The notes beneath the pieces were generated by a model, which had not been told where the DNA came from, did no database searches, and saw only the letters and a list, made by a program, of their open reading frames with translations. From contig JBPOHZ010000008.1 of the NCBI GenBank assembly GCA_052034955.1, positions 27,614-91,613 on the forward strand: DNA of 64,000 nucleotides, written 5' to 3'. This document shows positions 6,734-56,563 of the stretch, one piece after another. Within the stretch, counting starts at the first letter, position 1; each line of letters begins with the position of its first letter. Both the position numbers and the translations under genes were made by a program. Origin of the DNA: Candidatus Saccharimonadota bacterium. GTDB taxonomy: Bacteria; Patescibacteriota; Saccharimonadia; Saccharimonadales; AWTP1-31.

Positions 6734-6774
6734 TAAAGAGCTAACGTTTGTCCTGTTATACTAAAGGTAAGTTT

Positions 6775-8142
6775 ATGAAGAAGATTAAGATCAGCCTATC
6801 CAAGTCTCAGAAGCGATTCCTTTCTAGATATCGTCGTCAAATAATATTTGGTTCGAATATCGTGGCTTTTGTCACCCTGGGATTGGTTCTGCTCATATTT
6901 ACGCGCGCCGCACAGAACTCTACAAACTTTGAGGCAGAATTAGGTGTTAATAATGGAGCCGTGGAGTATTCAGATGGCCAGGCATCCGGAGGTAGATCGG
7001 TAAGATTCGGCAAGGCTACTGCCACCGATCTAGGCAATATTATGATCAACTCAACCTTAAACGCTAGAGCCGCTCAGTATAAAGATGCTTCGGAGTCGAC
7101 AGTAACTCAGAATCTTACCAGTAGAGGCAATCTAGAACCCAGCCCATCAGGCTATAACACGGCGAATGGACAAGGACAATTTAGATTTTTTTGCCAATAC
7201 TCACACTTTAATTACGACGATCCAATAGTCTACCCAGTTAAAGACGGAGTGCCTCAAAAAGGCAAGGCTCATCTGCATATGTTCTGGGGAAATACCGCGA
7301 TGAATGCCTCTATCACTAACGCCAACATCACGCAGACCGGTGGGGGTAGCTGCTCGGGCTTCGAGGCAAACAGAACCGGATATTGGATGCCGGCGGTTAT
7401 AGACGGTAATAATAAGGCGGTAATTCCCGAATCGATACTTATGTACTACAAATCGGCTTCCAACCTCAACGCCCAAACCAAAATTATGCCGGCGGGCCTA
7501 AAGATGATAGCGGGAAATTCTAGCGGTAATAGCCTTAGTACACCGAATAATGTAAATGGTATCCAATGGCAGTGCTATACCGGTAGTGTAAATTACACCT
7601 ACCAGGGGCAAACCATACCAGATAGGTGCCCGCCTAATCCGGGTACAAATGGAGATAACTTCCCCATCCAGTTGGTGGCAATTATTTACTTCCCAGCCTG
7701 CGTGGCAGTAGACGGCAGCAATAAGCCCATATTGGACACCTCACAGGATTTAGCTCGTTTCCCAAGCAATAATCATAAAGACCATCTATCCTACTTTGTT
7801 TCTAGCGGGGGCCAACTTGCTTGCCCATCTAGCCATCCATATATCATGCCCCAAGTTAGCTATCATGTATCATGGCCAGGAAATCTAGATTATTCTAGCT
7901 GGCACTTATCTTCAGATAGAATGCCTGGTATGCCAACCATGCAAGACGGACAAACCTTACACGCCGACTGGTATGGTGGTTGGAATGATACAATCATGAA
8001 ACATTGGACAGAAGGCTGCATAAACAAGGGTCAGAACTGTTCCAATGGGGTTATGGGTACTTCGGCTAATTTCCCGACTAACCAGCAACTCAAGGCTTTG
8101 CCGTCAAACTATAGCGGACCAAATCCAATAAGCTTACCATAA
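6775..8142 (+). CDS. Membrane-anchored DUF1996-like protein
   Basis: DDPIVYP...GKAHLHMFWGN resembles the DPIV.PG...HxHxFxG signature of DUF1996. TM anchor present. ATG 6775 is preferred over TTG 6748 (TGTTATACT box at 6754-6762, AAGG upstream). Confidence 0.5.
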   Translation: MKKIKISLSKSQKRFLSRYRRQIIFGSNIVAFVTLGLVLLIFTRAAQNSTNFEAELGVNNGAVEYSDGQASGGRSVRFGKATATDLGNIMINSTLNARAAQYKDASESTVTQNLTSRGNLEPSPSGYNTANGQGQFRFFCQYSHFNYDDPIVYPVKDGVPQKGKAHLHMFWGNTAMNASITNANITQTGGGSCSGFEANRTGYWMPAVIDGNNKAVIPESILMYYKSASNLNAQTKIMPAGLKMIAGNSSGNSLSTPNNVNGIQWQCYTGSVNYTYQGQTIPDRCPPNPGTNGDNFPIQLVAIIYFPACVAVDGSNKPILDTSQDLARFPSNNHKDHLSYFVSSGGQLACPSSHPYIMPQVSYHVSWPGNLDYSSWHLSSDRMPGMPTMQDGQTLHADWYGGWNDTIMKHWTEGCINKGQNCSNGVMGTSANFPTNQQLKALPSNYSGPNPISLP

Positions 8143-8190
8143 TCACGTTTAGTAATTGACGTGTTAAGTATCCAGGCGTAGGCTTAAGGT

Positions 8191-8652
8191 ATGAAACCTT
8201 CAAGTAATGTTGGGTATCTACTAAATCACCTGGCTTTTGTACTAGGGCGTCAATCAGACCAAGTGCTACAAGAAAGATTAGGGATTGGATTTAGTCAGTT
8301 TAAAATAATGATGACCTTGCAGAATGCACCGCATATCCAGCAAAAAGTCATTGCCGAGAAACTCGGGCAGACCGAAGCCAGCATTAGCAGGCAGATTAAG
8401 TTGATGCTAGATCAAAACCTGCTTCAAACGTTTAGGCGGCCAGAAAATAAGCGCGAGCATATAACTACCCTAACGTTAAAAGGGGATAGGCTCACCAACG
8501 AGGCCATGGATATTCTTGGACAATACCATGCACCAGTTATGGAAGCGCTTACCGAAAAGCAGCAACATGCCCTGACCGAGTCACTGCAAATAATGCATCG
8601 GGCCGCTTGTAGCAGTGATGGACCCGGCTCATGCCACCCAGATTTTGAATAA
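8191..8652 (+). CDS. MarR-family transcriptional regulator
   Basis: 153 aa with a winged-helix pattern: QQKVIAEKLGQTEASISRQIKLM followed by RRPENKREHITTLTLKG. Confidence 0.8.
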   Translation: MKPSSNVGYLLNHLAFVLGRQSDQVLQERLGIGFSQFKIMMTLQNAPHIQQKVIAEKLGQTEASISRQIKLMLDQNLLQTFRRPENKREHITTLTLKGDRLTNEAMDILGQYHAPVMEALTEKQQHALTESLQIMHRAACSSDGPGSCHPDFE

Positions 8653-8666
8653 TATAAAAGGAAGTC

Positions 8667-9953
8667 ATGTCAAAAAAAGAAACTAGTGCCAAAAGCACAC
8701 TAGAGAAAAAAGCTCTGCCAATTGTTCTGTTCACCGTATTCTTAGATGTCTTGGGAGTAGGGATCCTTATTCCGGTTTTGCCTCAACTTATCTATACAAT
8801 ATTTATTCCCCAAGGATTTACATACAATGGTTCTTTAATCATGCTTGGTTGGCTGACTGCCATCTTCCCGCTAATGCAATTTTTGGCCACGCCAATTTTG
8901 GGTCAGCTGTCCGACAGGCATGGAAGACGCAAGGTACTAGGCTTTAGTCTTGCCGGTACGGCATTTGGTTATGCCCTTTTTGCGGTAGCAATAATTATGA
9001 AGAACATTCCTTTACTGTTCGTAGCCCGTGGGCTGGACGGTATCACTGGCGGGAACTTAAGTGTTGCAAGGGCGGTGGTTGCCGATGTTAGCACTCCCAA
9101 GAATAGAACCCGTAACTTCGGACTCATCGGTGCCTGTTTTGGGCTAGGATTTGTATTTGGACCATATATCGGCGCCAGGCTGGCGTCACCTAAGGTAAGT
9201 TTTTTTGGTTTGTTCGACACTCCGCATTGGTTTGGACCATCCACTCCGTTTTGGTTTACGGCCATACTAAGCACTATTAACGTCATACTGCTTCTAATAT
9301 TCTTGCCCGAGACGCACAGGCATATCAACAGCAAGCTTAAAATGGTCTGGAACAAATCTCTCGACAATATTCGCCAAGCGGCCCTTAGTCCAAGCCTTCG
9401 AGTTGTGTTTGTATCCAACTTCTTGTTCTGGGGCGGATTTACGTTCTTTACAACATTCTTCCAAATTTTGTTAGTACAAAAACTTGGATTCAAGCAAAGT
9501 AATATCGGTGACTTCTTTGCCTACATTGGTATTTGGATTGTGATTAGCCAGGGAATCCTTACTCCATTACTTGCCAGGTTCAAGAACAGCACAATTCTGC
9601 GTTTTAGCTTCTTGGGTCTTGGATTTGCTTTGCTTCTTCAGCTGTTTCCAAATAACACCACACAGTTACTTTTGGTAGCACCATTCATCGCCATCTTTAA
9701 TGGGCTAAATATAGCCAACGCAACATCGTTGATTAGTTCTTCGGTAGGTCCCGAGATACAGGGCGAGGTACTAGGAATAGATGGAAGCATTCAGGCGCTA
9801 GCTGGTGCAATCCCAGCTATCATAAGTGGTTATGTTGCAACACTTGGTATTAACATGCCAGTTATAGTTGGTGGATTCACGATCATTGCCGGTGGATTGA
9901 TATTCAACATCTTCTACAAAGAGCCAAAAAAGCCACTGACCCAAGTTGTTTAA
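8667..9953 (+). CDS. MFS transporter (DHA1/Tet-like)
   Basis: 428 aa with about 12 hydrophobic helices. MFS motif A-like GQLSDRHGRRKVL. Lies immediately downstream of the MarR gene. Confidence 0.85.
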   Translation: MSKKETSAKSTLEKKALPIVLFTVFLDVLGVGILIPVLPQLIYTIFIPQGFTYNGSLIMLGWLTAIFPLMQFLATPILGQLSDRHGRRKVLGFSLAGTAFGYALFAVAIIMKNIPLLFVARGLDGITGGNLSVARAVVADVSTPKNRTRNFGLIGACFGLGFVFGPYIGARLASPKVSFFGLFDTPHWFGPSTPFWFTAILSTINVILLLIFLPETHRHINSKLKMVWNKSLDNIRQAALSPSLRVVFVSNFLFWGGFTFFTTFFQILLVQKLGFKQSNIGDFFAYIGIWIVISQGILTPLLARFKNSTILRFSFLGLGFALLLQLFPNNTTQLLLVAPFIAIFNGLNIANATSLISSSVGPEIQGEVLGIDGSIQALAGAIPAIISGYVATLGINMPVIVGGFTIIAGGLIFNIFYKEPKKPLTQVV

Positions 9954-9985: not shown

Positions 9986-10398
9986 GGGGCTGAATTTTAA
10001 GCTCGACGTTGGACTTTAACAGACTTTAATGGCAGGCCGGATTGATCTACACGTTAGCTGGATCAAAATTATAGTTGCAGAAAAATCTACAGCTCGCGGA
10101 TCTCTAATTAAAGAACTAGCTGCAAAGCTTGTTCCTAATTCAGAGTTCGCACTAGCAGCCTAATTTAATTAGACTGCCGCTTCATAAGTGACATCAGATA
10201 ATTTATGTCAGCGCTATATACTTCTGATTGCTCCAGACTTATTTGCCCATAAGTTTGGCTAAGCCTTAGGGCTGCAGCCATTACATTTTTTGTTTGTTTA
10301 CACTGTTTTGGCTAAAGAAACATCCAAACAAACTAAGCCTGTAGTCATAAAGCCATGTTAACTGACGGACGCGGGGGCAGTACCCGCCAGCTCCACCA
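9986..10398 (+). ncRNA. ssrA: tmRNA (SsrA)
   Basis: 5' GGGGCUGA pairs with 3' CAGCUCC-A-CCA, including the G3:U wobble. T-stem is GCGGG/CCCGC. An internal tag reading frame ends ...NSEFALAA-TAA (stop 10161-10163). An intrinsic terminator follows. The resume codon is uncertain. Confidence 0.9.
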
Positions 10399-11592: not shown

Positions 11593-12855
11593 ATGCTAAA
11601 GACAACAAAAATTGCTGGCAAAATTGTCCGAAAGATTACTGGTCAACGTGGTCAGATCGACCAACCGCATATTGCTGGCGCTCTAAGCTACATAGAGGAT
11701 CATTGGGCTGTTCTAACTCATGCCGAAAAGAGTGACATAGGCACGGTCATTGGGTTGCCCCACCCTTATGTTGTGCCAGCTGCCGATCCAAAGACAAAGT
11801 TTACTTTTAAAGAGCAGTATTACTGGGATAGTTACTTTACGGCTGTTGGTTTGGTGGGCGGATCTCACCAGAAGCTAGCCGAGGGAATGCTAGATAATCT
11901 CATCTACCTATACAAAAGGTTTCATTTTATTCCAAATGCTAGCCGTATGTACTACATGAGCCGGTCGCAGCCACCGGTGCTTACTAGCTTTATTCGGCTA
12001 ATATATGAAACAGGGAATAAAGATCACCAATGGCTAGCCGAGCGTATGGCTGTGGCCGAGCAAGAATATACGACTGTCTGGACCAGCGAAACTCACCCAT
12101 TCTGGCACAAAGTAGATCATGGCCTTAGCCGCTACTACGACATTAATATGCTCCATGACCTTGCCGAGGCAGAAAGTGGTTGGGATATGACCACCCGGTT
12201 CGAGCGTAAGTGCCTAGACTACTTGCCGGTAGACTTGAATTCGCTGCTGTATAAGTACGAAGCCGATTTTGCTTGGGCTGCTAAAGAATCGGGCAACAAT
12301 AAATCTGCCGAACACTGGAAGGCTGCGGCCTCTAGGAGAAAATCTGCCATGAATAAAACAATGTGGCACAGTCGAAAAAACTTCTTTTTTGACCATAACT
12401 ACAACAAAAATCAGATTGGTGACGTCTGGTCATTGGCTGGGTTCTTCCCTATGTGGGCTGGACTGGCTAGCAAAGACCAAGCCGAACAGCTTGTTAGGCA
12501 GATATTCAGGTTCGAACACGACGGAGGTCTGTCTACAACTACCAGGCCATTAATAGACATGACTATTTTTGGGTCACTTAAAGCCCAATGGGCCTTCCCA
12601 AATGGTTGGCCGCCACTTCATTTTATTGTTCTGGAAGGACTAGAAAATTATGGCTATCACGATGAAGCTAAGCGGTTGGCCCGTAAGTGGATAAAAACTA
12701 ATTTGTATTGGTTTGAGCGCGATGGCGTCTTTCTAGAAAAATATAACGTAGTTAAGCCACACAAGCATCCGGTTGAGGGAGTGTATCCAAGCCAAACTGG
12801 ATTTGGATGGACTAACGCCATCTTTAAATATCTTTGTGAAAAATATCTGGATTGA
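11593..12855 (+). CDS. Trehalase (GH37-like)
   Basis: 420 aa. KEQYYWDSYF and QWAFPNGWPPLH match the two GH37 trehalase signature regions. Confidence 0.8.
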   Translation: MLKTTKIAGKIVRKITGQRGQIDQPHIAGALSYIEDHWAVLTHAEKSDIGTVIGLPHPYVVPAADPKTKFTFKEQYYWDSYFTAVGLVGGSHQKLAEGMLDNLIYLYKRFHFIPNASRMYYMSRSQPPVLTSFIRLIYETGNKDHQWLAERMAVAEQEYTTVWTSETHPFWHKVDHGLSRYYDINMLHDLAEAESGWDMTTRFERKCLDYLPVDLNSLLYKYEADFAWAAKESGNNKSAEHWKAAASRRKSAMNKTMWHSRKNFFFDHNYNKNQIGDVWSLAGFFPMWAGLASKDQAEQLVRQIFRFEHDGGLSTTTRPLIDMTIFGSLKAQWAFPNGWPPLHFIVLEGLENYGYHDEAKRLARKWIKTNLYWFERDGVFLEKYNVVKPHKHPVEGVYPSQTGFGWTNAIFKYLCEKYLD

Positions 12856-19213: not shown

Positions 19214-20272
19214 ATGAATGTTGTCAATAAACAGATAAAGGTATATGTAGGTCTAAGCGGCGGAGTAGATAGTTCTGTAACAGCTGCTCTTTTAAAGGAG
19301 CAGGGCTATGACGTCACTGGCGTATACATGAAGAACTGGAGCCAGGATTTGCCCGGTATGCCTTGTCCCTGGAAAGAAGACTACCAGGATGCCAAGCGTG
19401 TGGCAGTCCAGCTTGGAATTCCATTCAAGATGTACGATTTCCAAAAAGAGTACCGTAGGAAGGTTGTCGACTATATGGTTGCCGAGTATTTGGCAGGTCG
19501 GACTCCGAATCCCGATATTATGTGCAACCAAGAGGTTAAGTTCAAGGTGTTTCTTAGTTCTTGCCTAGAAGATGGCGCCGATATGATCGCTACCGGGCAT
19601 TACGCCGACACCAAAGATGGCCGGCTTTTGACAGCCAAAGATGACAACAAAGATCAAACCTACTTTTTATACCGGGTCACAGAAGACGCGCTAAAGCATA
19701 CGCTCTTCCCGCTGGGGGATTACACCAAGCCTGAGGTCCGCAAGTTGGCCGAGAAGTTTGGATTAGTTACGGCCACCAAAAAAGAGAGCATGGGTATTTG
19801 TTTCGTAGGAAAGGTTGGCATCAAAGATTTTCTGATTCACGAACTTGGTCCACAAAAGCCCGGCCCAATTATTGAGCAAAATGGCGTGACCATCGGTAGC
19901 CACGATGGGGCAATATACTACACCATTGGTCAAAGGCATGGACTAGACGTTGGCGGCGGACTGCCTTACTACGTTACTGGCAAAGATATGAAGAAGAACG
20001 AAGTTTATGTAACAACCCATATTGACGATCCAAACCTATGGACCAGGACTTTAACGTTAACCGATGTTCATTGGATCGGTCATCCAGCCAAAGATGGAGC
20101 TAAAGTACAAGTTAGAACCAGACACCGCGCCCCCTTAGTCGAAGCCACCTTAAGTATTGATGAGCACGAAACAATTCTAAATCTCAAAGATGAAATTCGT
20201 GCCGCTACCCCCGGCCAGTCCGCTGTTATATATAGCAACGATGTTTGCCTCGGCGGCGGCATTCTCATCTAA
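19214..20272 (+). CDS. mnmA: tRNA 2-thiouridine(34) synthase
   Basis: 352 aa. PP-loop GLSGGVDSSV and the typical MnmA body, including ATGHYA. TGTTATAAT ends 7 nt before the ATG. Confidence 0.92.
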   Translation: MNVVNKQIKVYVGLSGGVDSSVTAALLKEQGYDVTGVYMKNWSQDLPGMPCPWKEDYQDAKRVAVQLGIPFKMYDFQKEYRRKVVDYMVAEYLAGRTPNPDIMCNQEVKFKVFLSSCLEDGADMIATGHYADTKDGRLLTAKDDNKDQTYFLYRVTEDALKHTLFPLGDYTKPEVRKLAEKFGLVTATKKESMGICFVGKVGIKDFLIHELGPQKPGPIIEQNGVTIGSHDGAIYYTIGQRHGLDVGGGLPYYVTGKDMKKNEVYVTTHIDDPNLWTRTLTLTDVHWIGHPAKDGAKVQVRTRHRAPLVEATLSIDEHETILNLKDEIRAATPGQSAVIYSNDVCLGGGILI

Positions 20273-20337
20273 AAGATAATTGACACAAATACAAAAATAA
20301 TATATCGTATTCAATGACTATTAAGTCATACGTTGAT

Positions 20338-20392
20338 CTGCATATCTGTATTTGGTCGCTTGGATAAGCAGGGAGTAAGTAGCGAAACCGGG
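20338..20392 (+). promoter_or_regulatory. Candidate cis-regulatory pseudoknot RNA, copy D
   Basis: P1 is CUGCAUAUC/GAUAAGCAG. The loop carries GGUCGCU, complementary to the downstream AGCGA-AA-CC. A TTGACA box lies at 20280-20285. The RBS-sequestering hairpin UCUCUAUC/GAUAGGAGA (20424-20446) precedes ATG 20452. Confidence 0.6.
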
Positions 20393-20451
20393 ACGAATCT
20401 CTCTTGAATACAAGTTTGTTCGATCTCTATCAATTAAGATAGGAGACCTTT

Positions 20452-20892
20452 ATGTCTACAGAAAAAGAACTTAGCCCGCATCAAATACAAAGCAACAGGT
20501 TGTATAACAGAGCCTTAGACAAATTTCGTAGTGCAACTATTCAACTAGGTGTATTTGTATGTGGTGTCGCAGGTATTCCATTCGTGAGCGATTTTATCCA
20601 AGATATTGACCAAGCAAAAATAGTGGAAGCAGCATTAATTGGCAGTTACAGCACGGCCGTATTGGCTGTTGGAGCATGTAGCGTAAAGAATTTTGCGGAT
20701 GGTATATCGCTTAGTTCTGCATCTCACACAATTGAAGCTCTAGGCAATATCGCACAAGTATCGAGTCCGGCTGAAAGCTCAAATGTTTTGCCCCAGACTG
20801 AGCTAATGACTCAACCTGCTATTGAGGCCATTCAAGATATGGGAAATGATGTTATGAATGCTACACAACCGAGGTGGCGTGATGATGTCTAA
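20452..20892 (+). CDS. Hypothetical membrane protein
   Basis: 146-aa ORF with AGGAG 6 nt upstream and hydrophobic segments. Confidence 0.55.
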   Translation: MSTEKELSPHQIQSNRLYNRALDKFRSATIQLGVFVCGVAGIPFVSDFIQDIDQAKIVEAALIGSYSTAVLAVGACSVKNFADGISLSSASHTIEALGNIAQVSSPAESSNVLPQTELMTQPAIEAIQDMGNDVMNATQPRWRDDV

Positions 20893-21121
20893 CAGACGGC
20901 GCGGCGAGTACATCCCTTCTAGTCATCGTGTTCCAGATTGGAACGATGATTGCATGGATGGTGATATTGCAATGACAGTGTTTGCTACGAGCGCCTCAAT
21001 ATTATTCTCTACAGTCGCGGTAGTTGTGCTAGCAAATTGCCTTTCCGATCCAGAACCTCAGGTAGTTGTTACTCCGCCGGTTGTTATAACTATCGATACA
21101 TCAATACCTCCACAAAGGTAA
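20882..21121 (+). CDS. Hypothetical small membrane protein
   Basis: GAGGTGG lies 4-7 nt upstream of tandem ATGs at 20882 and 20885. The start overlaps the upstream stop, suggesting translational coupling. One TM helix. Confidence 0.45.
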   Translation: MMSNRRRGEYIPSSHRVPDWNDDCMDGDIAMTVFATSASILFSTVAVVVLANCLSDPEPQVVVTPPVVITIDTSIPPQR

Positions 21122-21182
21122 TATTAGACTTCAATTGATTAGCCTGGCTTGAGTCCTGAGCTACCTCTGTTATAATAGCTGT

Positions 21183-23081
21183 ATGAATGCACAAGCTATC
21201 CGTAAGGCCTATTTAGATTTTTGTACAGAAAATAAGCACGTAGTCATACCGCGGGCCAAGCTGGTGCCGGACAATGATCCAACGACACTTTTTACTGGTT
21301 CAGGTATGCAGCCACTCCTGCCATATTTACTGGGCGAGCCACATCCTGCCGGTACTCGTGTTGCTGATAGCCAGACCTGTTTTCGTGCCGATGATATAGA
21401 AGAGGTCGGCGACAATCGTCATACGACTTTCTTCGAAATGCTTGGTAACTGGAGTTTTGGTGACTACTTTAAGGCCGAACAGCTTCCATGGTTCTTTACC
21501 TTCTTGGTTGATCGGGTTGGTTTGGACCCAAATAAACTGTACGTTACTGTTTTTGCGGGCGATAAGGAATTCGATTTGCCACAAGATGATGAGTCGGTAG
21601 ATATCTGGCAGGGGCTATTCAAGAGTAAGGGTATTGACGCCCAGGCAGCCATGATTGGTTCCGAGGCCGACGGTTACAAGCGCGGAGTCAACTCCGGCGA
21701 ACGAATCTTTTATTACGACGGAGCCAAAAACTGGTGGAGTCGTGGGGGCAAGCCGGCTACAACACCAGTGGGCGATCCTTGTGGACCCGACAGCGAAGTG
21801 TTTTATATGTTTGACGAAGTCGAGCACAATCCCGAATTTGGTGAGCACTGCCATCCAAACTGTGACTGTGGCCGATTCATGGAAATCGGTAACTCAGTAT
21901 TTATGACCTACAAACGAACCGACAAAGGTTTCGAGGAGCTACCAAACAAAAACGTCGACTTTGGCGGTGGACTGGAACGTATCGCTGCGGCTGCCATTAA
22001 TAGCCCTGATATGTTTAAGATCAGCTTGTTGTGGCCACTTGTCGAGGGTCTCGAGTCTGCAACAAACAAGAAATATAGTGACCACACTGCCGCAATGCGA
22101 GTCATCGCTGATCACCTTCGTGTAGCAGTTTTCTTGGCGGTTGACGGGGTTACCCCGAGCAATAAAGAGCAGGGCTACGTTATGCGCCGGCTCCTGCGCC
22201 GGGCTATTCGTTTTGCCTTTGATCTTGGTATAGAAAAAGATTTGATGCAACTAGCTATCCCGATTGTGCTTGAAGCTTACCATCAAGATTTCCCAGAAAT
22301 AGCTGAGCAGCAGGATAAGATTATGGAAATCCTAATCAAAGAAGAAAAAACTTTCCGTCAGACGCTGACCAAAGGCCTCCGTGAATTTGCCAAACTGTTT
22401 GATGGAGCAGACCAAAAACAACATGGTGAGCTCATCTTTAAGTTATACGACACTTATGGATTTCCCATGGAACTTAGCGAGGAAGAGGCTAAGCAGCAAG
22501 GGATTGACCTGGCATTAGACTGGCGCGAGCAGTTCGACACTCATATGCAAAAGCAGCGTGATATGTCCCGCACGGCTACCAAAGGTCAGTTTAAGGGTGG
22601 CTTGGGTGGTCAGACCGATCAACACAAGAAGTACCACACTGCAACGCACCTCATGTACCAAGCACTTCGTGAAGTTTTGGGAGATCATGTTATTCAGCGA
22701 GGAAGTAACATTACCGAAGAGCGGCTGCGTTTTGACTTTAGCCACGACGAAAAAGTAACCCGTGAGCAGTTAGACCAAGTAGAACAGATTGTTAACGAAC
22801 AGATTGGCAAAGACCTTAAAGTAAGCTGGGCAGAATATCCTACTGCCGAAGCCACTGGCCCACTTGGTGCACTTGGACAATTTGGTGACCGTTATGGCGA
22901 CACCGTTAAGGTTTACAAAATGATTGCCGACGGCGTCGACAAGCCATTTAGCTTCGAGATCTGCGGTGGTCCACATGTCGACCATACTCTTCAGCTTTTC
23001 GAAGATAATAAGAAATTTAAAATTCTAAAGGAAGAAGCAAGTTCTGCGGGTGTGCGGCGCATAAAAGCTGCTTTAGTTTAG
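21183..23081 (+). CDS. alaS: Alanine--tRNA ligase, short form ending after the editing domain
   Basis: 632 aa. N-terminal class II core (FTGSGMQP, FEMLGNWSFGDYFK). Editing-domain motifs HTATHLM and CGGPHV. Ends ...GVRRIKAALV with no C-Ala domain. Confidence 0.9.
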   Translation: MNAQAIRKAYLDFCTENKHVVIPRAKLVPDNDPTTLFTGSGMQPLLPYLLGEPHPAGTRVADSQTCFRADDIEEVGDNRHTTFFEMLGNWSFGDYFKAEQLPWFFTFLVDRVGLDPNKLYVTVFAGDKEFDLPQDDESVDIWQGLFKSKGIDAQAAMIGSEADGYKRGVNSGERIFYYDGAKNWWSRGGKPATTPVGDPCGPDSEVFYMFDEVEHNPEFGEHCHPNCDCGRFMEIGNSVFMTYKRTDKGFEELPNKNVDFGGGLERIAAAAINSPDMFKISLLWPLVEGLESATNKKYSDHTAAMRVIADHLRVAVFLAVDGVTPSNKEQGYVMRRLLRRAIRFAFDLGIEKDLMQLAIPIVLEAYHQDFPEIAEQQDKIMEILIKEEKTFRQTLTKGLREFAKLFDGADQKQHGELIFKLYDTYGFPMELSEEEAKQQGIDLALDWREQFDTHMQKQRDMSRTATKGQFKGGLGGQTDQHKKYHTATHLMYQALREVLGDHVIQRGSNITEERLRFDFSHDEKVTREQLDQVEQIVNEQIGKDLKVSWAEYPTAEATGPLGALGQFGDRYGDTVKVYKMIADGVDKPFSFEICGGPHVDHTLQLFEDNKKFKILKEEASSAGVRRIKAALV

Positions 23082-43492: not shown

Positions 43493-44386
43493 ATGAATAA
43501 AGTCATTCTCTATTATAAATTTGTTCCAGTTCCTGACCCGGCCATGACTATGCATTGGCAAAAAGAGCTTTGCAATCGTCTTGGCCTAAAAGGACGGGTA
43601 ATTATTAGCAAACACGGTATCAATGGTACGCTTGGTGGCGAAATTGAAAACTTGCGTGAGTATAAGCGCGAGATGAATCGCTCAATTACCTTTAAAGGGA
43701 TCATGTATAAATGGAGTGATGGCCATAAGGAAGGTCAGAAGCCAGACTTTCCGCGCTTAAGCGTTAAGGTCCGTGATGAGCTTGTAGCTTTTGGCGCCCC
43801 GGAAGAAGTCAAAGTTGACGAAAAAGGCGTAATTGGTGGCGGCAAACACCTCAAACCCGAAGCTGTGCATAAGTTGGTAGAAGAGCGTGACGATGTAATA
43901 TTCTTTGACGGACGTAATGCCTATGAGGCGGCAGTGGGTAAGTTCAAGGACGCAATTGTCCCTGATACTCAAACAACCAGAGATTTCCTAGATGAACTAG
44001 AGGGCGATAAGTACGCCGATATCAAAGATAAGCCGGTAGTTACATATTGTACCGGTGGAATTCGCTGCGAAGCACTTAGTGTGCTGATGAAAAATCGTGG
44101 CTTCAAAGAGGTCTACCAAATCGACGGCGGCATTGTGAAGTACGGCGAAAAATACAAAGACGATGGCTTGTGGGAGGGCGCACTTCATATTTTTGACGAC
44201 CGCATGACTCATCGTTTTAGTGATAAATCTAAGGACATTGGCGAGTGTGTCCATTGTGGTGGAAAAACTAGCCGATACATAAACTGTGCAGATGTGTCAT
44301 GCAACAAGCTAGTACTGGTTTGTGATAAATGTGACAAGAAAACGCACTGTAAATTGCACCAAACTGCCGATATTAAGCATATCTAG
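43493..44386 (+). CDS. trhO: Rhodanese-domain tRNA uridine(34) hydroxylase (YceA/TrhO family)
   Basis: 297 aa. The N-terminal YYKF... start typical of YceA, rhodanese active loop YCTGGIRCE, and a C-terminal Cys cluster CVHCG...C..C. Confidence 0.8.
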   Translation: MNKVILYYKFVPVPDPAMTMHWQKELCNRLGLKGRVIISKHGINGTLGGEIENLREYKREMNRSITFKGIMYKWSDGHKEGQKPDFPRLSVKVRDELVAFGAPEEVKVDEKGVIGGGKHLKPEAVHKLVEERDDVIFFDGRNAYEAAVGKFKDAIVPDTQTTRDFLDELEGDKYADIKDKPVVTYCTGGIRCEALSVLMKNRGFKEVYQIDGGIVKYGEKYKDDGLWEGALHIFDDRMTHRFSDKSKDIGECVHCGGKTSRYINCADVSCNKLVLVCDKCDKKTHCKLHQTADIKHI

Positions 44387-44400
44387 CGTAGCAAGCGGTA

Positions 44401-44430
44401 TTGACAACGCTAGTCAATAGGATATAAAAT
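44401..44430 (+). promoter_or_regulatory. Sigma70-like promoter for RNA copy A
   Basis: TTGACA (44401-44406), then a 16-18 nt spacer, then TATAAAAT (44423-44430). Confidence 0.55.
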
Positions 44431-44469
44431 ACTATTACTACTAAGTCTATTTGTTGTGTAGGCATCGAT

Positions 44470-44521
44470 ACCTCGCACTAATCTGGACGCTTGTGAAAGG
44501 TTGAGCCAATAGCGTAACCGG
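44470..44521 (+). promoter_or_regulatory. Candidate cis-regulatory pseudoknot RNA, copy A
   Basis: P1 is ACCUCGCAC/GUGAAAGGU (7 of 9 positions paired). The loop carries GGACGCU (44485-44491), complementary to AGCGU-AA-CC (44511-44519). Confidence 0.6.
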
Positions 44522-44546
44522 ACCTTCAAGTAGACGAAGTGGTGTT

Positions 44547-44579
44547 CCCCGGGCAGAGATGTCCGGGGTTTTTGTTTTG
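44547..44579 (+). terminator. Intrinsic terminator following RNA copy A
   Basis: Stem CCCCGG/CCGGGG with a 10-nt loop, followed by TTTTTGTTTT. Confidence 0.8.
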
Positions 44580-44594
44580 TATAGAACCAGGTAA

Positions 44595-44623
44595 TTGACA
44601 AATAATAAACAAAGTCGTAAAAT
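44595..44623 (+). promoter_or_regulatory. Sigma70-like promoter for RNA copy B and gene 44763
   Basis: TTGACA, a 17-nt spacer, then TAAAAT. Confidence 0.6.
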
Positions 44624-44660
44624 ATGACTAATCAAAGCAATTTGGTTGTCGACTAAGAAG

Positions 44661-44712
44661 CAGTACTCGTATTTGGACGCTTGAGTATTGTGGAGTCACT
44701 AGCGTAACCGGG
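44661..44712 (+). promoter_or_regulatory. Candidate cis-regulatory pseudoknot RNA, copy B
   Basis: P1 is CAGUACUCG/UGAGUAUUG (9 bp, 2 G-U). Loop GGACGCU (44675-44681) is complementary to AGCGU-AA-CC (44701-44709). An RBS-sequestering hairpin lies at 44741-44759. Confidence 0.6.
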
Positions 44713-44762
44713 CAACAAGCTACTCTATTGAGTATCTCGAGCTCTTATAAATAAGGAGCAAT

Positions 44763-46163
44763 ATGAATCACGAAAGATTAGTCGGCAGCTTGCTTGCCGT
44801 AGGAATGCTGGCGTCTACACTTGCGCCACAAGATACAAGTGAATTTCAAGTTATAGCTAAAACCGAAGATGTCACTCAACAAGTAGGTAGTATAGCTTGC
44901 ACTATAAATGAATCGGCTGGACTGCATGGCTATCCAATACCATTTTTAATAGATAGGGCATATGCCCATCCCGACCCAGGTGCATTAGTCAAAAAACCCA
45001 GTGAAGAAGTCGAAGATTATGTAACGGCTGAAGAATTGATTTCCGATTTAGATTATCGTCTTCCATTTCCTTTAAAGTCTTCTGAGATAAGTGATACTCC
45101 AAGTCATATGTATCGAGAAAACATTAAAAACGTAGTAGCTGATCTCGCCAGGGATCTAGAAGGCCTGCCTTTATCGTTTATAGAAAGAGGATTTATACAG
45201 GGAATTGCCTTTCGAACAGAGTTAAGAGATGAAAATGACGAAGTTGTTTCATCATTATTTGGTGATGATGGAATACTAAGACTCAATATGACATTGCCAA
45301 GCGATAAATACGGCGAAATGTATTTCGGACCAAAAGCAATGTGGCAAGGAATTTTAAAAGAAGCGGGTCTAGCTGATTGCGATGAGTATAAACGACTTAT
45401 GGAACTAGACACAGAGTTTATGACATTTGGTGGTGACGCCTCTCGTTATGTCGATCGAGTTCTTCCACACAAGGATGTTCGAGATGTTGCTCTTGATATG
45501 CTTCGAATGGGTGCCGGATTCGATGAAGCATGGGACTACTTTGAAGAGCATACCCAGCTGGTATTGCTTGATAATTCCGAAAACTTAGATAGTACTGCAG
45601 ATAAGAATTTTAGAAAGGTACTATCTATTGTTAATGGCATCGATCCAAAACTCAGTCGACAGTTACTAGGCGCTGCTATGCAAAATGGAGATGATAGAAA
45701 AATAGATACACTTCGTGAGACTGAAAAACTTTGGCGTCGTTGGGCTAGCGAAAGGGCACTTCGACAATACCTTGGATATGATAAGCCGGAGATTGATGAT
45801 ATGGAACCTATCTATCCAGCATCCAGAGCAATTGATTCGGATGGTGAGTTAGATTTGCCATACATTGATGTACCAGTTGGGGAGTATACCGTTGGAGTCA
45901 GATTCGACCATCAACGAGAACGTTTATACTCGATTGTAAGCGGCGTTGGTGTCGGAGAATGGGGAACTATCGAACAAAATATAGCTAGCCGTGAATTTGA
46001 TGAACTATATGTTCGGGCTGCATTTTCACAGATACTCGGAGTAGCCCCAGAAGAACTTGTGCTTGAAGAATTTGTTTCGACTAGAGAAGACGGATATAGT
46101 GATCGAGCTATAGCAGTTGATGCAACTGATTGGGAAGGTTTTAGCAAGATTGTCGAGAAATAA
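44763..46163 (+). CDS. Hypothetical secreted protein
   Basis: 466-aa ORF with AAGGAG 6 nt upstream and an N-terminal signal-like LVGSLLAVGMLASTLAP. No known motif recognised. Confidence 0.65.
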   Translation: MNHERLVGSLLAVGMLASTLAPQDTSEFQVIAKTEDVTQQVGSIACTINESAGLHGYPIPFLIDRAYAHPDPGALVKKPSEEVEDYVTAEELISDLDYRLPFPLKSSEISDTPSHMYRENIKNVVADLARDLEGLPLSFIERGFIQGIAFRTELRDENDEVVSSLFGDDGILRLNMTLPSDKYGEMYFGPKAMWQGILKEAGLADCDEYKRLMELDTEFMTFGGDASRYVDRVLPHKDVRDVALDMLRMGAGFDEAWDYFEEHTQLVLLDNSENLDSTADKNFRKVLSIVNGIDPKLSRQLLGAAMQNGDDRKIDTLRETEKLWRRWASERALRQYLGYDKPEIDDMEPIYPASRAIDSDGELDLPYIDVPVGEYTVGVRFDHQRERLYSIVSGVGVGEWGTIEQNIASREFDELYVRAAFSQILGVAPEELVLEEFVSTREDGYSDRAIAVDATDWEGFSKIVEK

Positions 46164-46274
46164 CACAACACTTTCTATCTAATAAGTATATATTTTAGAT
46201 AACTTTGTTGACAAATATCAAACTTACGTAGTACGCTTAAATCAATCAAAGCAATTTGGTTGTAGACAATGAAA

Positions 46275-46326
46275 CAATACTCGTATTTGGACGCTTGAGT
46301 ATTGCGGAGTCAGTAGCGTAACCGGG
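46275..46326 (+). promoter_or_regulatory. Candidate cis-regulatory pseudoknot RNA, copy C
   Basis: P1 is CAAUACUCG/UGAGUAUUG. The G-to-A change relative to copy B converts a G-U pair into A-U. GGACGCU is complementary to AGCGU-AA-CC. TTGACA lies at 46208-46213. Confidence 0.6.
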
Positions 46327-46352
46327 CAACGAAAAACTAATCTCATATAAGA

Positions 46353-46389
46353 GCGGTTTGGCCCATACGCCAAGCCGCTTTTGATTTTT
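46353..46389 (+). terminator. Intrinsic terminator following RNA copy C
   Basis: Stem GCGGTTTGGC/GCCAAGCCGC (one G-U), loop CCATAC, then TTTTGATTTTT. Confidence 0.75.
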
Positions 46390-46454
46390 ATAAACAAGCT
46401 AGAAACCTTGGTGAGGGGTGTTTTCTGCTGCCTAAAAACTGGAAGGCTTTGAAA

Positions 46455-49331
46455 ATGAAACATTTTAATGATGGTATGCCGTCTGCCGACTCTGCGGAGT
46501 TAGAGGCTATTTTGACTTACGTTAGGCGTGACGATGAACCGCTTTTCTGTGATCCAAATTCCATTCCTGGCCCCGACGAAATTATGCAAGAGCTGGGCAT
46601 TGACGAGGTGACGATTCCACGAATGCCTCGACTAAGAGCTGACCAACGATTTGATTATGAATCAACTAGGACTTTATCAGCAAGGGATGTGGGGGCGCGT
46701 CGTTTGCCTAGTAATGCCACCGTAGTTAGGGATAAAGATGGACAGTTCCGAGTAGACTTTAGGGTTGACCCCATGAGTCCAGCGAATATCGTGCGAACTC
46801 AAGCCGCTCTTACGGGGATGTTTGGACGTGCGGCTAGCGAAGCATTAGTTAACCCATCGGTTCAAAAAGAAGTAGATCCTCGTGATCGTCCCAATCCTCT
46901 TCCGCCGGGTTCTGTAAAAACTCTAGACGAATATATGCGGGAAGCGGTGGTATTTGGGGCTGATGCCCTACAAGAACGTAAAGACGAAGTGCGTTCAGTA
47001 GTTGCTGCAAGTGTCATAGCTGGTGTGTTGATGACCGGTACACCCCAGATTAGTGCGCCATCAAGACCTGCAGCTGTGTCGGCTCAGCCAGCGAAGCGAG
47101 CAGGCGAATCTCCGAAGGATATGAAATCAAAGGAATCCACTGATCCAGTAGAACGTGTACTTCCGATTAGCCTGGTTTCCGCAAGTTACGTGCCAAAAAA
47201 ACCGACACATTTGCGCGCAGTCGCTATTGCATTGGGTGTTCCAACAAAGCAAATTAAGGCAGCTAACCCTCATCTTGATCCAAAAGCAGAAATTCCTGCT
47301 GGAACAGTTATAAATGCCGAAGTTAAAACCTCATCGCTGACTATAGATGAGTCAATGCCCGTTGGCTCTGTTGCAAGGGCATTTGGTTTGACTGACGATG
47401 CTGTACTAAGCGTTAATGAACCTAACCAAGATGGACTTCTTCAGGGACGAATAAATATTCCCCGAACGCTAGTCAAGTTAGATGACGGAATGAGGCCTAA
47501 TATTGGAGCAGTGGCAAAAGAATATGGACTTGGCCCCGATCAGGCCCGTGATCTCCATTATGCCAATAATCACACTCCTGCCGGTATTCTGGTTTTGCCG
47601 GTCAATACCGAGATTGGCGATCATCCAGATGCCGTTAATCAGCTGGTCGCCATTGCTCAGTCAGAAAGCGAAGTTATAGATACTCCGGCAATAGTTGTTC
47701 CCGATGCAACGGTTCCTGTTGACAACCCTCCCGCCGAACCACCGATTGTCGAGACTCCACCTGCTGAACCAGCGGTAGTTGAAGCGCCGCCGGTTGTCGA
47801 GACTCCTCCCGCCGAACCGGTAGAGACTACCGTTCCACCGGTCTCCGATCCCGAGTCTACGCAACTAGACAACACGTCAACTACCTTACCTACTGCCGAA
47901 CCGCCAGTTATCGAAACACCGCCCGCCGAACCGCCGGTAGTCGAAACACCGCCGGTTGTCGAGACTCCTCCCGCCGAACCAGCGGTAGTTGAAGCGCCGC
48001 CGGTAGTCGAGACTCCACCCGCCGAACCGCCAGTTCAGCCTCCAGTACCAACCGGTGCTCCCGATGTCTTTGCATCACAGCGGGATAACCCGAGTATGGG
48101 CGAAAGACCGAATGGTAAGCCGATCAACTCTACAAATACCTGTAACATAACTTCGTTAACCATGGCGCTTCAGGGGCTAGGCTTGCTCCAGGGTGTGGCA
48201 GATGGTGCGCAGCCTGAACAGCTGGTGGTTTTGAAATACTTGAGTGATCTCGCCAAAAAAGGTCGTGATATAACCGATCCATTTACCTTACAAAAACTTG
48301 CTGAGCAATTTGGTGCAAACGGCGAAGTACGTGAGGTGCAGAATAACTTCCTATTCTGGGTGGATCTAAATAATCGACTACTAAACGGTGAGAAGGTAAT
48401 CATGAGCATCTCGGGTCATATAGTTCATGTTAAAGAAATGAATATGATGGGTATCGTCGTCGACGATCCTGCTGGCGCCTCGGTCCTACTTCACAAAGTA
48501 AATGGTCGTTGGGTATCGAGTAGTGATCCGAATATTACCGACCGCTCCGGAACAGAATGGTATGAATTTAGTGCACTCAACAGTAAAAACCCAGCATCAC
48601 CAAATCAACCCGGACAGCCTGGCGACAATCATCTTTGGCCATGGTCAGATGTGGGTGAGTATCAGCACTTTAATTGGGTCTTAACGCTCCGCGGAAATTC
48701 TCCTACGCCTCCACCGGCTCCGCCAGTACCGCCAGTAGCTCCACCAGCCGCAGAAGTACCAGCTCCGGAGCAGCCTCCAGTAGAGACCCAAGCCCCCGTA
48801 ACGGAAGAAGTAGATTATGCAAAACTCGACGCATTACAAAGAAATATTCTACCGGTTACGGCAGGCATACCTGCCGAGTACCTCCCGCTCATTAAGGCTA
48901 GCGAGCACTTTTCGGCCATCCAGCTTGCCGCTCAGATAAAGAACGAGAGTAACTTTAATCCAAATGCCCGAAGCGGTGCTGGGGCTGTTGGCCTTGGACA
49001 GTTTACGAATGGAGCTTGGGATGAAATGGGCAGAAGATATCCTGAGCTCACCAACCCAAATGCCAGTCGTAATGATCCCGTCGAGTCAATTATTCGACAG
49101 CGACTTTATATGGACGATATGTACGATCTTGTTCAGAAGTATTTATCAGAAGGCAAGATAAGCGGCGATCCTATTGAGTTGACCTACGCAGCATACAACG
49201 CCGGGATGGGTAATGTCTTGAAGTACAAGGGTGTCCCACCGTTCAAAGAAACTAAAACATACATCGCACGAAATAAGCAGACAATCATGGAATTCGTCCT
49301 ACAAGTAGCGACGGAAAATCCAGGAATTTAA
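46455..49331 (+). CDS. Large secreted cell-wall-active protein: LysM-like repeats, Pro-rich linkers, Cys/His peptidase-like domain, C-terminal GH23 lytic transglycosylase (SLT)
   Basis: GGAAGG lies 8 nt upstream of ATG 46455. Three LysM-like segments. TCNITSL (Cys codon 48141-48143) and SGHIVHV (His codon 48417-48419). SLT motifs IKNESNFNPNA (Glu codon 48945-48947), GLGQF and AYNAGMGNV. Confidence 0.75.
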   Translation: MKHFNDGMPSADSAELEAILTYVRRDDEPLFCDPNSIPGPDEIMQELGIDEVTIPRMPRLRADQRFDYESTRTLSARDVGARRLPSNATVVRDKDGQFRVDFRVDPMSPANIVRTQAALTGMFGRAASEALVNPSVQKEVDPRDRPNPLPPGSVKTLDEYMREAVVFGADALQERKDEVRSVVAASVIAGVLMTGTPQISAPSRPAAVSAQPAKRAGESPKDMKSKESTDPVERVLPISLVSASYVPKKPTHLRAVAIALGVPTKQIKAANPHLDPKAEIPAGTVINAEVKTSSLTIDESMPVGSVARAFGLTDDAVLSVNEPNQDGLLQGRINIPRTLVKLDDGMRPNIGAVAKEYGLGPDQARDLHYANNHTPAGILVLPVNTEIGDHPDAVNQLVAIAQSESEVIDTPAIVVPDATVPVDNPPAEPPIVETPPAEPAVVEAPPVVETPPAEPVETTVPPVSDPESTQLDNTSTTLPTAEPPVIETPPAEPPVVETPPVVETPPAEPAVVEAPPVVETPPAEPPVQPPVPTGAPDVFASQRDNPSMGERPNGKPINSTNTCNITSLTMALQGLGLLQGVADGAQPEQLVVLKYLSDLAKKGRDITDPFTLQKLAEQFGANGEVREVQNNFLFWVDLNNRLLNGEKVIMSISGHIVHVKEMNMMGIVVDDPAGASVLLHKVNGRWVSSSDPNITDRSGTEWYEFSALNSKNPASPNQPGQPGDNHLWPWSDVGEYQHFNWVLTLRGNSPTPPPAPPVPPVAPPAAEVPAPEQPPVETQAPVTEEVDYAKLDALQRNILPVTAGIPAEYLPLIKASEHFSAIQLAAQIKNESNFNPNARSGAGAVGLGQFTNGAWDEMGRRYPELTNPNASRNDPVESIIRQRLYMDDMYDLVQKYLSEGKISGDPIELTYAAYNAGMGNVLKYKGVPPFKETKTYIARNKQTIMEFVLQVATENPGI
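47728..48055 (+). repeat. Pro-rich tandem repeat region (V/I)ETPPAEP(P/A)VV containing long duplicated DNA blocks
   Basis: GTTGTCGAGACTCCTCCCGCCGAACC and GAACCAGCGGTAGTTGAAGCGCCGCCGG each occur twice, about 200 nt apart. Confidence 0.85.
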
Positions 49332-49343
49332 AAAACAAGGATA

Positions 49344-50327
49344 ATGAAAGGAAATACAATGAGCGATCCAGAAAACAGTGCCGAACTAAGAATCCCCAAA
49401 CGACAAAAAAATACAAGACATAATCAGCATCGTATAATACGAAAACCCAAGAGATTAGCTGCTATGACATTAGCTGCCGTACTATCAGTTGGGGCTGCTG
49501 CTGATTACCTTGGTCTTATTGATCTGCCCGGGTTTCCTGATTTTAGCGCTAATCCCGGACAAATCCCGGGCAAGACGGTTTTAGAAGATATTGATATAGT
49601 TAAGTTTAGAGCCAGTAGCACAGATGCTCTGGGAGAAGCTACGGTTAAGGTCGACAGAGTAACTCAAGTTATGATCGACAAACCAGAAAAAGGCGACAAA
49701 AAATCTAATCCACACGAGACACGTATCTATGACGAGGGTGAGTATACTGCTCAGTGGGTTGTATCTGGAGTTTGGAAACCAGAACTTCAGCCAAATGGTG
49801 ACTTAGTAGTAACTCTGCCAGAGTCTCAAGGCAAGAGAATTGTTACCGAAAAGGATCCTAAATATAATGACGATGCCAGCGAAATTGCTACTATGCAATG
49901 GATTGGTAGTTTGGGTGGTGCAAGTACTGAAGATGATATCGCCTATGACAATGCCAGGACAAAGCTTACGGACTGGGCGAACGATCCCGAGCAGAGCGGA
50001 ACTTTCCATAGAGCTGTATCTTGCGTGGCGCTTGCTGGAGCTGCTGGTAAAGCCGAAGCATTTTCGCTTAGTACACCTGTAAATATTGTAAAATTCACTC
50101 CAGCTCGTGAGCCAGTTGCGGCACCAGAAGAAGGACTTCCTACAATTAGCTTCCAGATTCCAAATCCCACAGAAAAGGGAAGTATGCTAAATATGGAAAG
50201 TTGCCTTGAAACCCTTGATGACATGGGTTTTGACCCCAAGACAATGTCAACCGATAACCAAAGCGCCGTTGGCCTGGCAACATATCACATTAAAAAGTTA
50301 GAGTTACCAGAGCATATTCAAGAGTAA
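49344..50327 (+). CDS. Hypothetical membrane-anchored or secreted protein
   Basis: 327-aa ORF. Basic N-terminus followed by the TM/signal segment LAAMTLAAVLSVGAAA. The alternative ATG at 49359 has better AAAGGA spacing. Confidence 0.6.
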   Translation: MKGNTMSDPENSAELRIPKRQKNTRHNQHRIIRKPKRLAAMTLAAVLSVGAAADYLGLIDLPGFPDFSANPGQIPGKTVLEDIDIVKFRASSTDALGEATVKVDRVTQVMIDKPEKGDKKSNPHETRIYDEGEYTAQWVVSGVWKPELQPNGDLVVTLPESQGKRIVTEKDPKYNDDASEIATMQWIGSLGGASTEDDIAYDNARTKLTDWANDPEQSGTFHRAVSCVALAGAAGKAEAFSLSTPVNIVKFTPAREPVAAPEEGLPTISFQIPNPTEKGSMLNMESCLETLDDMGFDPKTMSTDNQSAVGLATYHIKKLELPEHIQE

Positions 50328-56476: not shown

Positions 56477-56563
56477 GCCGCGATGGCGGAATTGGTAGAC
56501 GCGCTAGCTTCAGGAGTTAGTGGGGGTAACCCCGTGGAGGTTCAAGTCCTCTTCGCGGCACCA
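56477..56563 (+). tRNA. tRNA-Leu (anticodon CAG), type II with a long variable arm and encoded CCA
   Basis: Acceptor GCCGCGA/TCGCGGC. Anticodon stem CTAGC/GTTAG with loop TTCAGGA. Variable arm GGGG-TAA-CCCC. T arm GGAGG-TTCAAGT-CCTCT. Confidence 0.93.

Follow-up and report, generated by a model that had tools for sequence, protein, structure and literature searches.

In Clostridioides difficile, the class-II cyclic di-GMP (c-di-GMP) riboswitches (Cdi-2-1, Cdi-2-3 and others), all four of them ON switches, use transcription-terminator platforms and control genes for surface proteins and pili (PMC6200980). Tandem c-di-GMP-II riboswitches stand before surface-anchor genes in Paraclostridium and its relatives (PMC9481103). 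Here we describe a locus in a Candidatus Saccharibacteria genome (Candidatus Saccharimonadota bacterium, assembly GCA_052034955.1, contig JBPOHZ010000008.1) in which riboswitches of this same RNA family, again with terminator platforms, precede genes for a predicted cell-wall hydrolase, called P2, and for other envelope proteins. The locus lies in a stretch of 64,000 nucleotides (positions 27,614 to 91,613 of the forward strand of the contig), which we call the window and whose coordinates are used below unless another locus is named. It differs from the C. difficile examples in its bearer, a candidate phyla radiation (CPR) member, and in its main conserved target, a predicted peptidoglycan hydrolase rather than an adhesin or pilin. 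Like the Paraclostridium tandem, it has two complete class-II units in series, each with an expression platform, before an envelope gene. In contrast to that arrangement, the second unit here has its own promoter-like site and an apparent Shine-Dalgarno occlusion instead of a terminator, and both taxon and target differ.

Wall hydrolase genes (rpfA, NlpC/P60) are also preceded by riboswitches in Actinobacteria, where the RNAs are of the ydaO type and sense cyclic di-AMP (c-di-AMP). There, likewise, a cyclic-dinucleotide riboswitch gates a peptidoglycan-cleaving enzyme, but the RNA family and the ligand are not those found here. The layout of P2 recalls MltD, which joins LysM to GH23, and CwlT, PrgK and TraG, the bifunctional SLT and cysteine-peptidase hydrolases of Gram-positive conjugation systems, which carry glycan- and peptide-cutting heads on one polypeptide. 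P2 is set apart from CwlT, PrgK and TraG by a papain fold of the Peptidase_C39_2 type, in place of CHAP or NlpC/P60, and by the lack of a type IV secretion system (T4SS) context, and from all of these enzymes by a presumably cytoplasmic N-terminal region, a transmembrane (TM) tether and very long Pro-rich stalks. Cyanophage lysozymes and endolysins (BFVD A0A096VKH0, A0A1D7SKI2 and A0A6G8R5Z4) share the papain-fold domain and the context of wall lysis, but are viral and only 15-22% identical.

The individual parts are known in kind: the LysM, SLT and papain-fold domains are, as are the riboswitch class, its use in tandem and its preference for surface proteins. What is new is the presence of c-di-GMP-II switches in Saccharibacteria, their conserved association with a tethered hydrolase in which two domains are predicted to be catalytic, and the cassette-like turnover of the envelope genes that appear to be co-regulated with it. 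We found no paper tying c-di-GMP riboswitches to Saccharibacteria, and the 2023 genetics paper in Cell is silent on the subject. In a perspective that names the regulation of epibiont attachment and feeding as an open question, riboswitches appear solely as tools that might serve for engineering (PMC11665869). Taken together, the observations below make it probable, in our judgment, that the locus is part of a c-di-GMP riboswitch regulon that gates a tethered wall hydrolase and envelope proteins. Such a regulon would provide a testable lead on envelope control in ultrasmall epibiotic bacteria, whose attachment and feeding are under regulation that is largely obscure. As a conserved target it offers a tethered enzyme with predicted activity on the glycan as well as the peptide of peptidoglycan, and as candidate surface factors a set of fast-evolving envelope proteins under the same apparent control. 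A signal such as c-di-GMP that is read by RNA without a protein receptor would also be attractive for a reduced genome.

The initial annotation of this DNA had proposed a shared RNA switch in front of envelope genes and had likened it to the c-di-AMP riboswitches that control wall hydrolases elsewhere. The switch itself is real: the repeated motif is a curated class, the c-di-GMP-II riboswitch aptamer (Rfam RF01786), with four copies in the window, and its linkage to the genes behind it is kept in relatives. The analogy was wrong as to the nucleotide, since the class is that of c-di-GMP and the Rfam search of the window gave no ydaO / c-di-AMP riboswitch match at E<=1. The four copies are as follows, with RF01786 scores to be read against a gathering score of 53.5 bits:

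44449-44531, plus strand: riboswitch copy a, first of the tandem pair; 45.3 bits, E=1.1e-6, below the gathering score.
44639-44722, plus strand: riboswitch copy b, second of the tandem pair; 56.0 bits, E=1e-9, above the gathering score.
46253-46336, plus strand: riboswitch copy c, which precedes the P2 gene; 63.3 bits, E=9.2e-12, above the gathering score.
20317-20402, plus strand: riboswitch copy D; 50.5 bits, E=4e-8, below the gathering score; 41.2 bits with the GAG variant model, whose cut-off is 40 bits.

From the class assignment we infer that these aptamers bind c-di-GMP. Orthologous aptamers in related loci reach 57.7-64.9 bits with RF01786, and the orthologue of copy a in locus L001 scores 61.8 bits. 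The counterparts of copy D in locus L042 (71-156 and 2985-3070) are likewise under the c-di-GMP-II gathering score, copy D and the L042 copies lying at 48-50 bits, and the ligand specificity of copy D may deviate from that of the other copies.

Co-occurrence of the RNA motif with the P2 family was examined in the five independent lineages that were available on contigs, represented by the window, L001 (protein P0001), L124/L125 (P0004), L126 (P0005) and L127 (P0007). One or two c-di-GMP-II riboswitches stand directly before the P2-like operon in all five, and they are in tandem in the window, L001 and L124/L125. The P2-like gene is single-copy and syntenic throughout, within a gene order that runs rhodanese, variable insert, P2-like gene, TM protein of 322-347 aa, uvrC, M24 peptidase, holin_4_2-family gene and secG. 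A single-sequence genome scan with the C-terminal part of P2 gave one relative only. The Phage_holin_4_2-family gene is conserved beside secG in L001 (17657-18019), L124 (8005-8367) and L126 (7784-8155), two genes past the P3-like gene, with uvrC and the gene for the M24 peptidase in between.

The aptamers are accompanied by promoter-like sites and candidate expression platforms, identified in a promoter scan that covered the window and in thermodynamic folds:

44401-44430, plus strand: promoter-like site before copy a (TTGACA-18-TAAAAT, 11/12 consensus matches).
44547-44578, plus strand: intrinsic terminator-like hairpin with U tract, the platform of copy a (9 pairs, 7 of them G-C), with the same layout in L001 and L124.
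44595-44623, plus strand: second promoter-like site, before copy b (TTGACA-17-TAAAAT, 11/12 matches).
44741-44759, plus strand: predicted hairpin of copy b, in which the Shine-Dalgarno sequence AGGAG of the protein P1 gene would pair with GCUCUU (minimum-free-energy fold).
46348-46393, plus strand: intrinsic terminator-like hairpin with U tract, the platform of copy c (15 pairs), kept in L001, L124, L126 and L127.

The terminator-like hairpins start 12-16 nt past copies a and c (12 nt in the case of copy c) and are conserved in relatives, and no terminator was found downstream of copies b and D. For copy b, the hairpin over the Shine-Dalgarno sequence is a possible translational expression platform. 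The b- and c-type aptamers are preceded, at a distance of 4 nt, by a further conserved element, AAUCAAAG (44629-44649 and 46243-46263 in the window, 4100-4120 in L127), which is complementary to the 5' strand of aptamer stem P1. In L127 the pairing reads ACCAAAA/UUUUGGU, which amounts to one compensatory change, and the element may form a helix that competes with stem P1 as part of the expression platform. The unit of copy a (promoter-like site, aptamer and terminator; 44401-44623 with the second promoter-like site that follows) is self-contained and has no open reading frame (ORF) of its own. Its aptamer-terminator part is also found in L001 and L124/L125, with a second TTGACA behind it in L124 and L001, and the unit could be either the first stage of a tandem switch or a stand-alone c-di-GMP-binding RNA.

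These parts suggest how the locus might work. Before the gene for protein P1, the first unit of the class-II pair would act through its promoter-like site and terminator, and the second through its promoter-like site and the hairpin that occludes the Shine-Dalgarno sequence, so that translation of protein P1 is probably gated by the level of c-di-GMP. Since copy c and its strong terminator precede the genes for P2 and P3, transcription into this pair would likewise be gated by cellular c-di-GMP. Because the C. difficile class-II switches are ON switches, we lean, but only slightly, toward activation by c-di-GMP here as well.

To view the switches in a wider setting, we used a DNA pattern specific for this aptamer subtype, which yields at least 120 metagenome loci. 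An N-terminal hydrophobic segment is present in 51 of the 65 first downstream ORFs of at least 150 aa (78%), compared with 39% of background ORFs (Fisher p=1.4e-9), in a comparison for which both the ORF calling and the background set were crude. Pfam matches among 78 downstream proteins include CAP (8), GGDEF (4), response regulators (3), PAS, DUF7507, SpaA, DUF11 and Ig-like surface domains, and hydrolases also occur downstream of the same subtype. On a 576-kb Saccharibacteria-like contig (L014, 5241-6796), a 64.9-bit copy is found approximately 350 nt upstream of a gene for a ParA/MinD-like ATPase, which is not an envelope target. The association with envelope proteins is thus a strong bias and not a rule: envelope proteins are enriched, but GGDEF/PAS proteins, response regulators, hydrolases and the ATPase share the switch. 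GGDEF genes behind such a switch are the pattern expected for feedback in c-di-GMP signaling, and because they stand downstream of the same aptamer subtype, they support c-di-GMP as the ligand.

The operon behind copy c encodes P2, whose parts are listed below and numbered from the ATG at 46455, located 8 nt downstream of GGAAGG:

46455-49331, plus strand: P2, a membrane-tethered multidomain predicted cell-wall hydrolase (958 aa from this ATG; 960 aa from a TTG at 46449).
46995-47054, plus strand: predicted TM anchor of P2 (aa 181-200), from hydropathy.
47166-47597, plus strand: three LysM-fold units in tandem (aa 238-381), from Pfam, relatives and a structure model.
47667-48056, plus strand: Pro-rich linker 1, approximately 130 aa with PAEPPVVETPP-type repeats.
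48057-48710, plus strand: papain-fold Cys/His/Asp domain, a divergent Peptidase_C39_2 subfamily (C563 at 48141-48143, H655 at 48417-48419, D671 at 48465-48467).
48924-49262, plus strand: SLT/GH23 lytic transglycosylase domain, with the catalytic-type Glu831 at 48945-48947.

The order along the chain is therefore an N-terminal region of approximately 180 aa, the TM anchor, the three LysM folds, the Pro-rich repeat linker, the papain-fold domain, a second linker of approximately 45 aa, and the SLT/GH23 domain. The N-terminal region (aa 1-180, 46455-46994) is conserved among relatives and matches no family; aa 6-470 of P2 are 40% identical to P0001. It could serve in cytoplasmic regulation or targeting. 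Because a TM segment follows this conserved region, P2 appears to be a tethered protein rather than one that is freely secreted. Both the N-terminal region and the anchor had been overlooked in the initial annotation.

The three LysM-like segments proposed at the outset are supported by relatives and by a structure model. With Pfam PF01476, only the first segment of P2 approaches the cut-off of 20.9 bits (18.4-20.1 bits) and segments 2 and 3 give no match, while P0006 (31.4 bits) and P0007 (27.4 bits), two relatives of P2, exceed it. In a model of aa 1-410, only aa 235-405 are predicted with confidence (pLDDT 72-90) and form three beta-alpha-alpha-beta units, and aa 1-230 are modeled at pLDDT <50. 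The best PDB matches of the model are the triple-LysM ectodomains of LYR4, CEBiP and NFP (E=6e-5 to 1e-3), followed by bacterial LysM hydrolases that include MltD and NlpC/P60 enzymes. The Pro-rich linkers are likewise present as described, and the DNA of linker 1 contains a 48-nt tandem repeat at 47895/47900-48031.

The C39-like assignment of the Cys/His region also proved sound, and is supported by homology through intermediates, an invariant triad and a papain-fold model. The isolated domain scores 16.2 bits with Peptidase_C39_2 (PF13529; cut-off 24, E=0.016) and is thus below threshold on its own. In a word-indexed database it returned one match only, as did full-length P2, for which the Pro-rich linker swamps the search, and the family surfaced only when 1.84 billion cluster representatives were searched exhaustively with HMMER. 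This yielded 111 relatives at E<=1e-3, counted as representatives at 50% clustering. Peptidase_C39_2 is matched at E<=1e-3 by 74 of the 104 that were scanned with Pfam; P0008, for example, exceeds the cut-off with 28.4 bits. The Cys, His and Asp residues (C29, H121 and D137 of the domain, corresponding to C563, H655 and D671 of P2) are invariant in an alignment of 30 sequences. The AlphaFold2 model built from this alignment has a pLDDT of 92.6 and a pTM of 0.90.

When this model was compared to the PDB with Foldseek, the top 50 matches were mainly papain-fold proteins (Alr0975, PeiR, the C39 domains of LahT, PCAT1 and ComA, calpain, Atg4B and staphopain), with the pseudomurein endoisopeptidase PeiR ranking level with the C39 domains. 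Sequence searches of the PDB with the domain, as a single sequence or as a profile, gave nothing significant. Among predicted viral structures, the best matches are cyanophage lysozymes and endolysins (E=2e-7 to 2e-5, TM-score 0.46-0.56). The domain relatives are fused to SH3_3 (25), SH3_4 (16), SLT (7), PG_binding_1 (7), LysM (5), glucosaminidase (3) and phage lysozyme (2) modules, as well as to cores of extracellular contractile injection systems (eCIS; 5) and to Hcp of the type VI secretion system (T6SS; 1). Because of these wall-module fusions and the structural matches to phage lysins, the best reading of the domain is that of a putative peptidoglycan-directed peptidase or amidase. Beyond P2 itself, the search defines a sizeable uncharacterized papain-fold subfamily of 111 representatives, which occurs attached to wall-binding modules as well as on phage lysins, T6SS Hcp and eCIS cores.

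The SLT assignment agrees with the original call. The domain scores 49.1 bits with PF01464 (cut-off 21.3, E=4.8e-13) and has all three motifs, KNE831S, GLGQF and AYNAG. We take E-S, G-L-x-Q and A-Y-N-x-G to be the signatures of the SLT/GH23 family, with Glu as the catalytic residue. The SLT domains of P0001 and P0004 score 46.6 and 45.4 bits. In PHROGs, the stretch falls in endolysin and lytic-tail families (E=3.6e-24), and phage matches of P2 are confined to this part, at 30-44% identity. The best NCBIfam match, far under its cut-off, is a flagellar-assembly lytic transglycosylase.

From these domains, P2 is expected to sit in the membrane of its producer through one TM helix, with three LysM units that would bind peptidoglycan near the membrane. 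Of its two heads, which are carried on long Pro-rich stalks, the first would be a Cys563/His655/Asp671 peptidase that cuts peptide stems or cross-links, and the second a lytic transglycosylase that cuts glycan strands. Both activities are predictions from domain architecture.

The remaining genes encode proteins under the same apparent control that match no known family:

44763-46163, plus strand: protein P1, 466 aa with a signal-peptide-like N-terminus and no known domain, lineage-specific (from the ORF list and profile and homology searches).
49344-50327, plus strand: P3, 327 aa with one N-terminal TM anchor (aa 38-62), beginning 12 nt past the end of P2.
20452-21121, plus strand: overlapping genes for two small membrane proteins downstream of copy D, one of 146 aa (20452-20892) and one of 87 aa (20858-21121).

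The ORF positions given for the proteins of 466, about 959 and 327 aa were correct, except that the P2 size was off by one whichever start codon is used. Protein P1 begins with a signal-peptide-like sequence (MNHERLVGSLLAVGMLASTLAPQ) and, in accord with the original description, has no match in Pfam, NCBIfam, PHROGs or the PDB. It returns itself alone from an index of 5.8 billion proteins, and is 31% identical over approximately 150 aa to its positional counterpart in L001. P3, which had rightly been called anchored, has no match in Pfam, NCBIfam or PHROGs and nothing significant in a PDB sequence search. Every relative has a partner of similar size in its position, only 15-21% identical, and proteins at the P1 and P3 positions can hardly be aligned across lineages. 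The two proteins behind copy D are membrane proteins as annotated, with two hydrophobic segments in the 146-aa protein and one in the 87-aa protein. Neither matches a known family, and the latter is conserved in L042 as a 91-aa homologue. We therefore picture protein P1, P3 and the small copy D proteins as probable fast-evolving envelope proteins under the same signal.

Riboswitch-headed gene cassettes turn over at two conserved positions, between the rhodanese and P2 genes and between an mnmA-like gene and alaS, and their content differs by lineage (window 43493-46448 and 19214-23081, L001 1100-10000, L042 1-3600, L125, and L127 2400-4900). L001 contains two copies of a four-gene unit that carries a riboswitch of its own (1455-5458 and 5693-9696). 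At the mnmA-like-alaS position, the window carries the 146-aa and 87-aa genes, and in L042 this place is taken by three different genes, a further riboswitch and the 91-aa homologue of the 87-aa protein. Modules are exchanged within P2 relatives as well. P0001 has at aa ~560-860 (L001 ~11680-12580) an unrelated middle domain rich in His/Asp motifs, and P0005 (L126) has a GDSL-like acylhydrolase at aa 735-874, where SLT would be. A reading of the P0001 module as a LAS/M15 metallopeptidase, based on H..D and HxH motifs, was dropped since it had no Pfam or PDB support.

Several observations weigh against the proposed c-di-GMP regulon. Two of the four aptamers in the window, copies a and D, are under the Rfam gathering score although significant by E-value, and copy D, while in the c-di-GMP-II clan, exceeds a cut-off only with the GAG variant model. 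The terminator is present in every minimum-free-energy fold, with or without aptamer stem P1, and no convincing anti-terminator was found in the thermodynamic folds. The promoter scan detected no plus-strand promoter between the protein P1 gene and copy c, and no strong terminator was found in the interval between P3 and uvrC, which leaves the operon boundaries uncertain. For P2, its own Pfam scores for C39_2 and LysM are under the cut-offs, and the Foldseek matches of the Cys/His domain in the PDB are weak (best E=2.4e-3, TM-score 0.40-0.47). Finally, a motif scan for GGDEF, EAL and HD-GYP found nothing credible in the 64-kb window or the related loci, which reveals little about a genome of approximately 1 Mb. 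Diguanylate cyclase genes have been reported in ultra-small metagenome-assembled genomes (PMC9938205).

Within a c-di-GMP regulon, the sequence of P2 is compatible with either the wall of the producer or that of a host as substrate. One serious possibility, which we stop short of favoring outright, is that P2 is a housekeeping autolysin that remodels the producer's own wall, either as the cell grows, buds or divides or to clear the way for envelope-spanning machines (type IV pili, competence or type IV secretion, for example), with the riboswitch tying this activity to lifestyle. The membrane tether and the membrane-proximal LysM units suit a self-directed enzyme, the gene is conserved, single-copy and syntenic in five lineages, and LysM plus SLT is the housekeeping layout of MltD, which is itself among the fold matches together with LysM structures of NlpC/P60 enzymes. 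The distant NCBIfam match to flagellar-assembly transglycosylases points the same way. However, swaps of catalytic modules between close relatives are rare for housekeeping autolysins, as are tandem second-messenger switches and hypervariable neighbors, and an enzyme could reach its own wall without long stalks.

We also entertain, more tentatively, the possibility that P2 is a weapon or feeding tool that stretches over the interface between epibiont and host on its Pro-rich stalks and opens the Actinobacteria-type wall of a host, in which case protein P1, P3 and the cassette proteins would be host-specific adhesins or effectors and c-di-GMP would turn the system on at attachment. Module swaps of this kind are typically seen in lysins and toxins that follow differing target walls, and the partner and cassette proteins diverge very quickly, with 15-21% identity between positional counterparts. 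In addition, relatives of the Cys/His domain reside on T6SS Hcp, eCIS cores and phage lysins, and linkers of ~130 and 45 aa could span tens of nanometers. An existing proposal in the field holds that patescibacterial lytic transglycosylases compromise host envelopes (PMC11665869). These points must be set against the anchoring of P2 in the producer's membrane, which its LysM units adjoin, and against a conserved housekeeping neighborhood (uvrC, pepP, secG) in which no secretion-system genes adjoin the locus and no immunity-like gene is recognizable.

A broader version of host attack, in which class-II switches mark a host-interaction regulon with riboswitch-headed cassettes of hypervariable envelope proteins that undergo gain, loss and duplication at the two conserved positions, and with a stalked P2 that breaches the host wall as the signal climbs at attachment, is in our view unlikely. 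If the genome lacks diguanylate cyclases of its own, the switches could even read c-di-GMP derived from the host.

It is improbable that the Cys/His domain instead processes proteins, as do the double-glycine leader peptidases of family C39, and matures protein P1, P3 or other secreted proteins. The family name, a weak Pfam match to C39 proper (E=0.28) and the C39 domains of LahT, PCAT1 and ComA among the fold matches would fit such a role. Nevertheless, Pfam detects no ABC domain in P2, so that the fusion to an ABC transporter is missing, and the domain is internal and beyond the TM anchor, which would place it outside the cell and not in the cytoplasm. Moreover, its relatives are overwhelmingly fused to wall-binding or wall-cutting modules, lysins are its best viral structural matches, and PeiR ranks as high as the C39 domains. 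A peptidoglycan-directed enzyme under riboswitch control is the reading we prefer.

Finally, we considered and rejected as highly improbable the idea that the locus is left over from a phage or conjugative element, as a lysis or VirB1-like module, beside which the RNA elements are incidental: SLT matches to phage endolysin and tail-lysin families, the Phage_holin_4_2-family gene a few genes downstream in relatives, and the combination of SLT and Cys peptidase known from CwlT, PrgK and TraG might suggest it, but only the SLT part is phage-like, the flanks are without structural, integrase or T4SS genes, synteny amid housekeeping genes and riboswitch linkage are kept in five lineages, and the GC content of the locus (0.47-0.48) is near the window mean of approximately 0.45.

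Elsewhere in the window, the Rfam scan also identified two ordinary housekeeping RNAs, a tmRNA gene at 9986-10398 (85 bits) and, at 56477-56560 (53.5 bits), a tRNA with a long variable arm.

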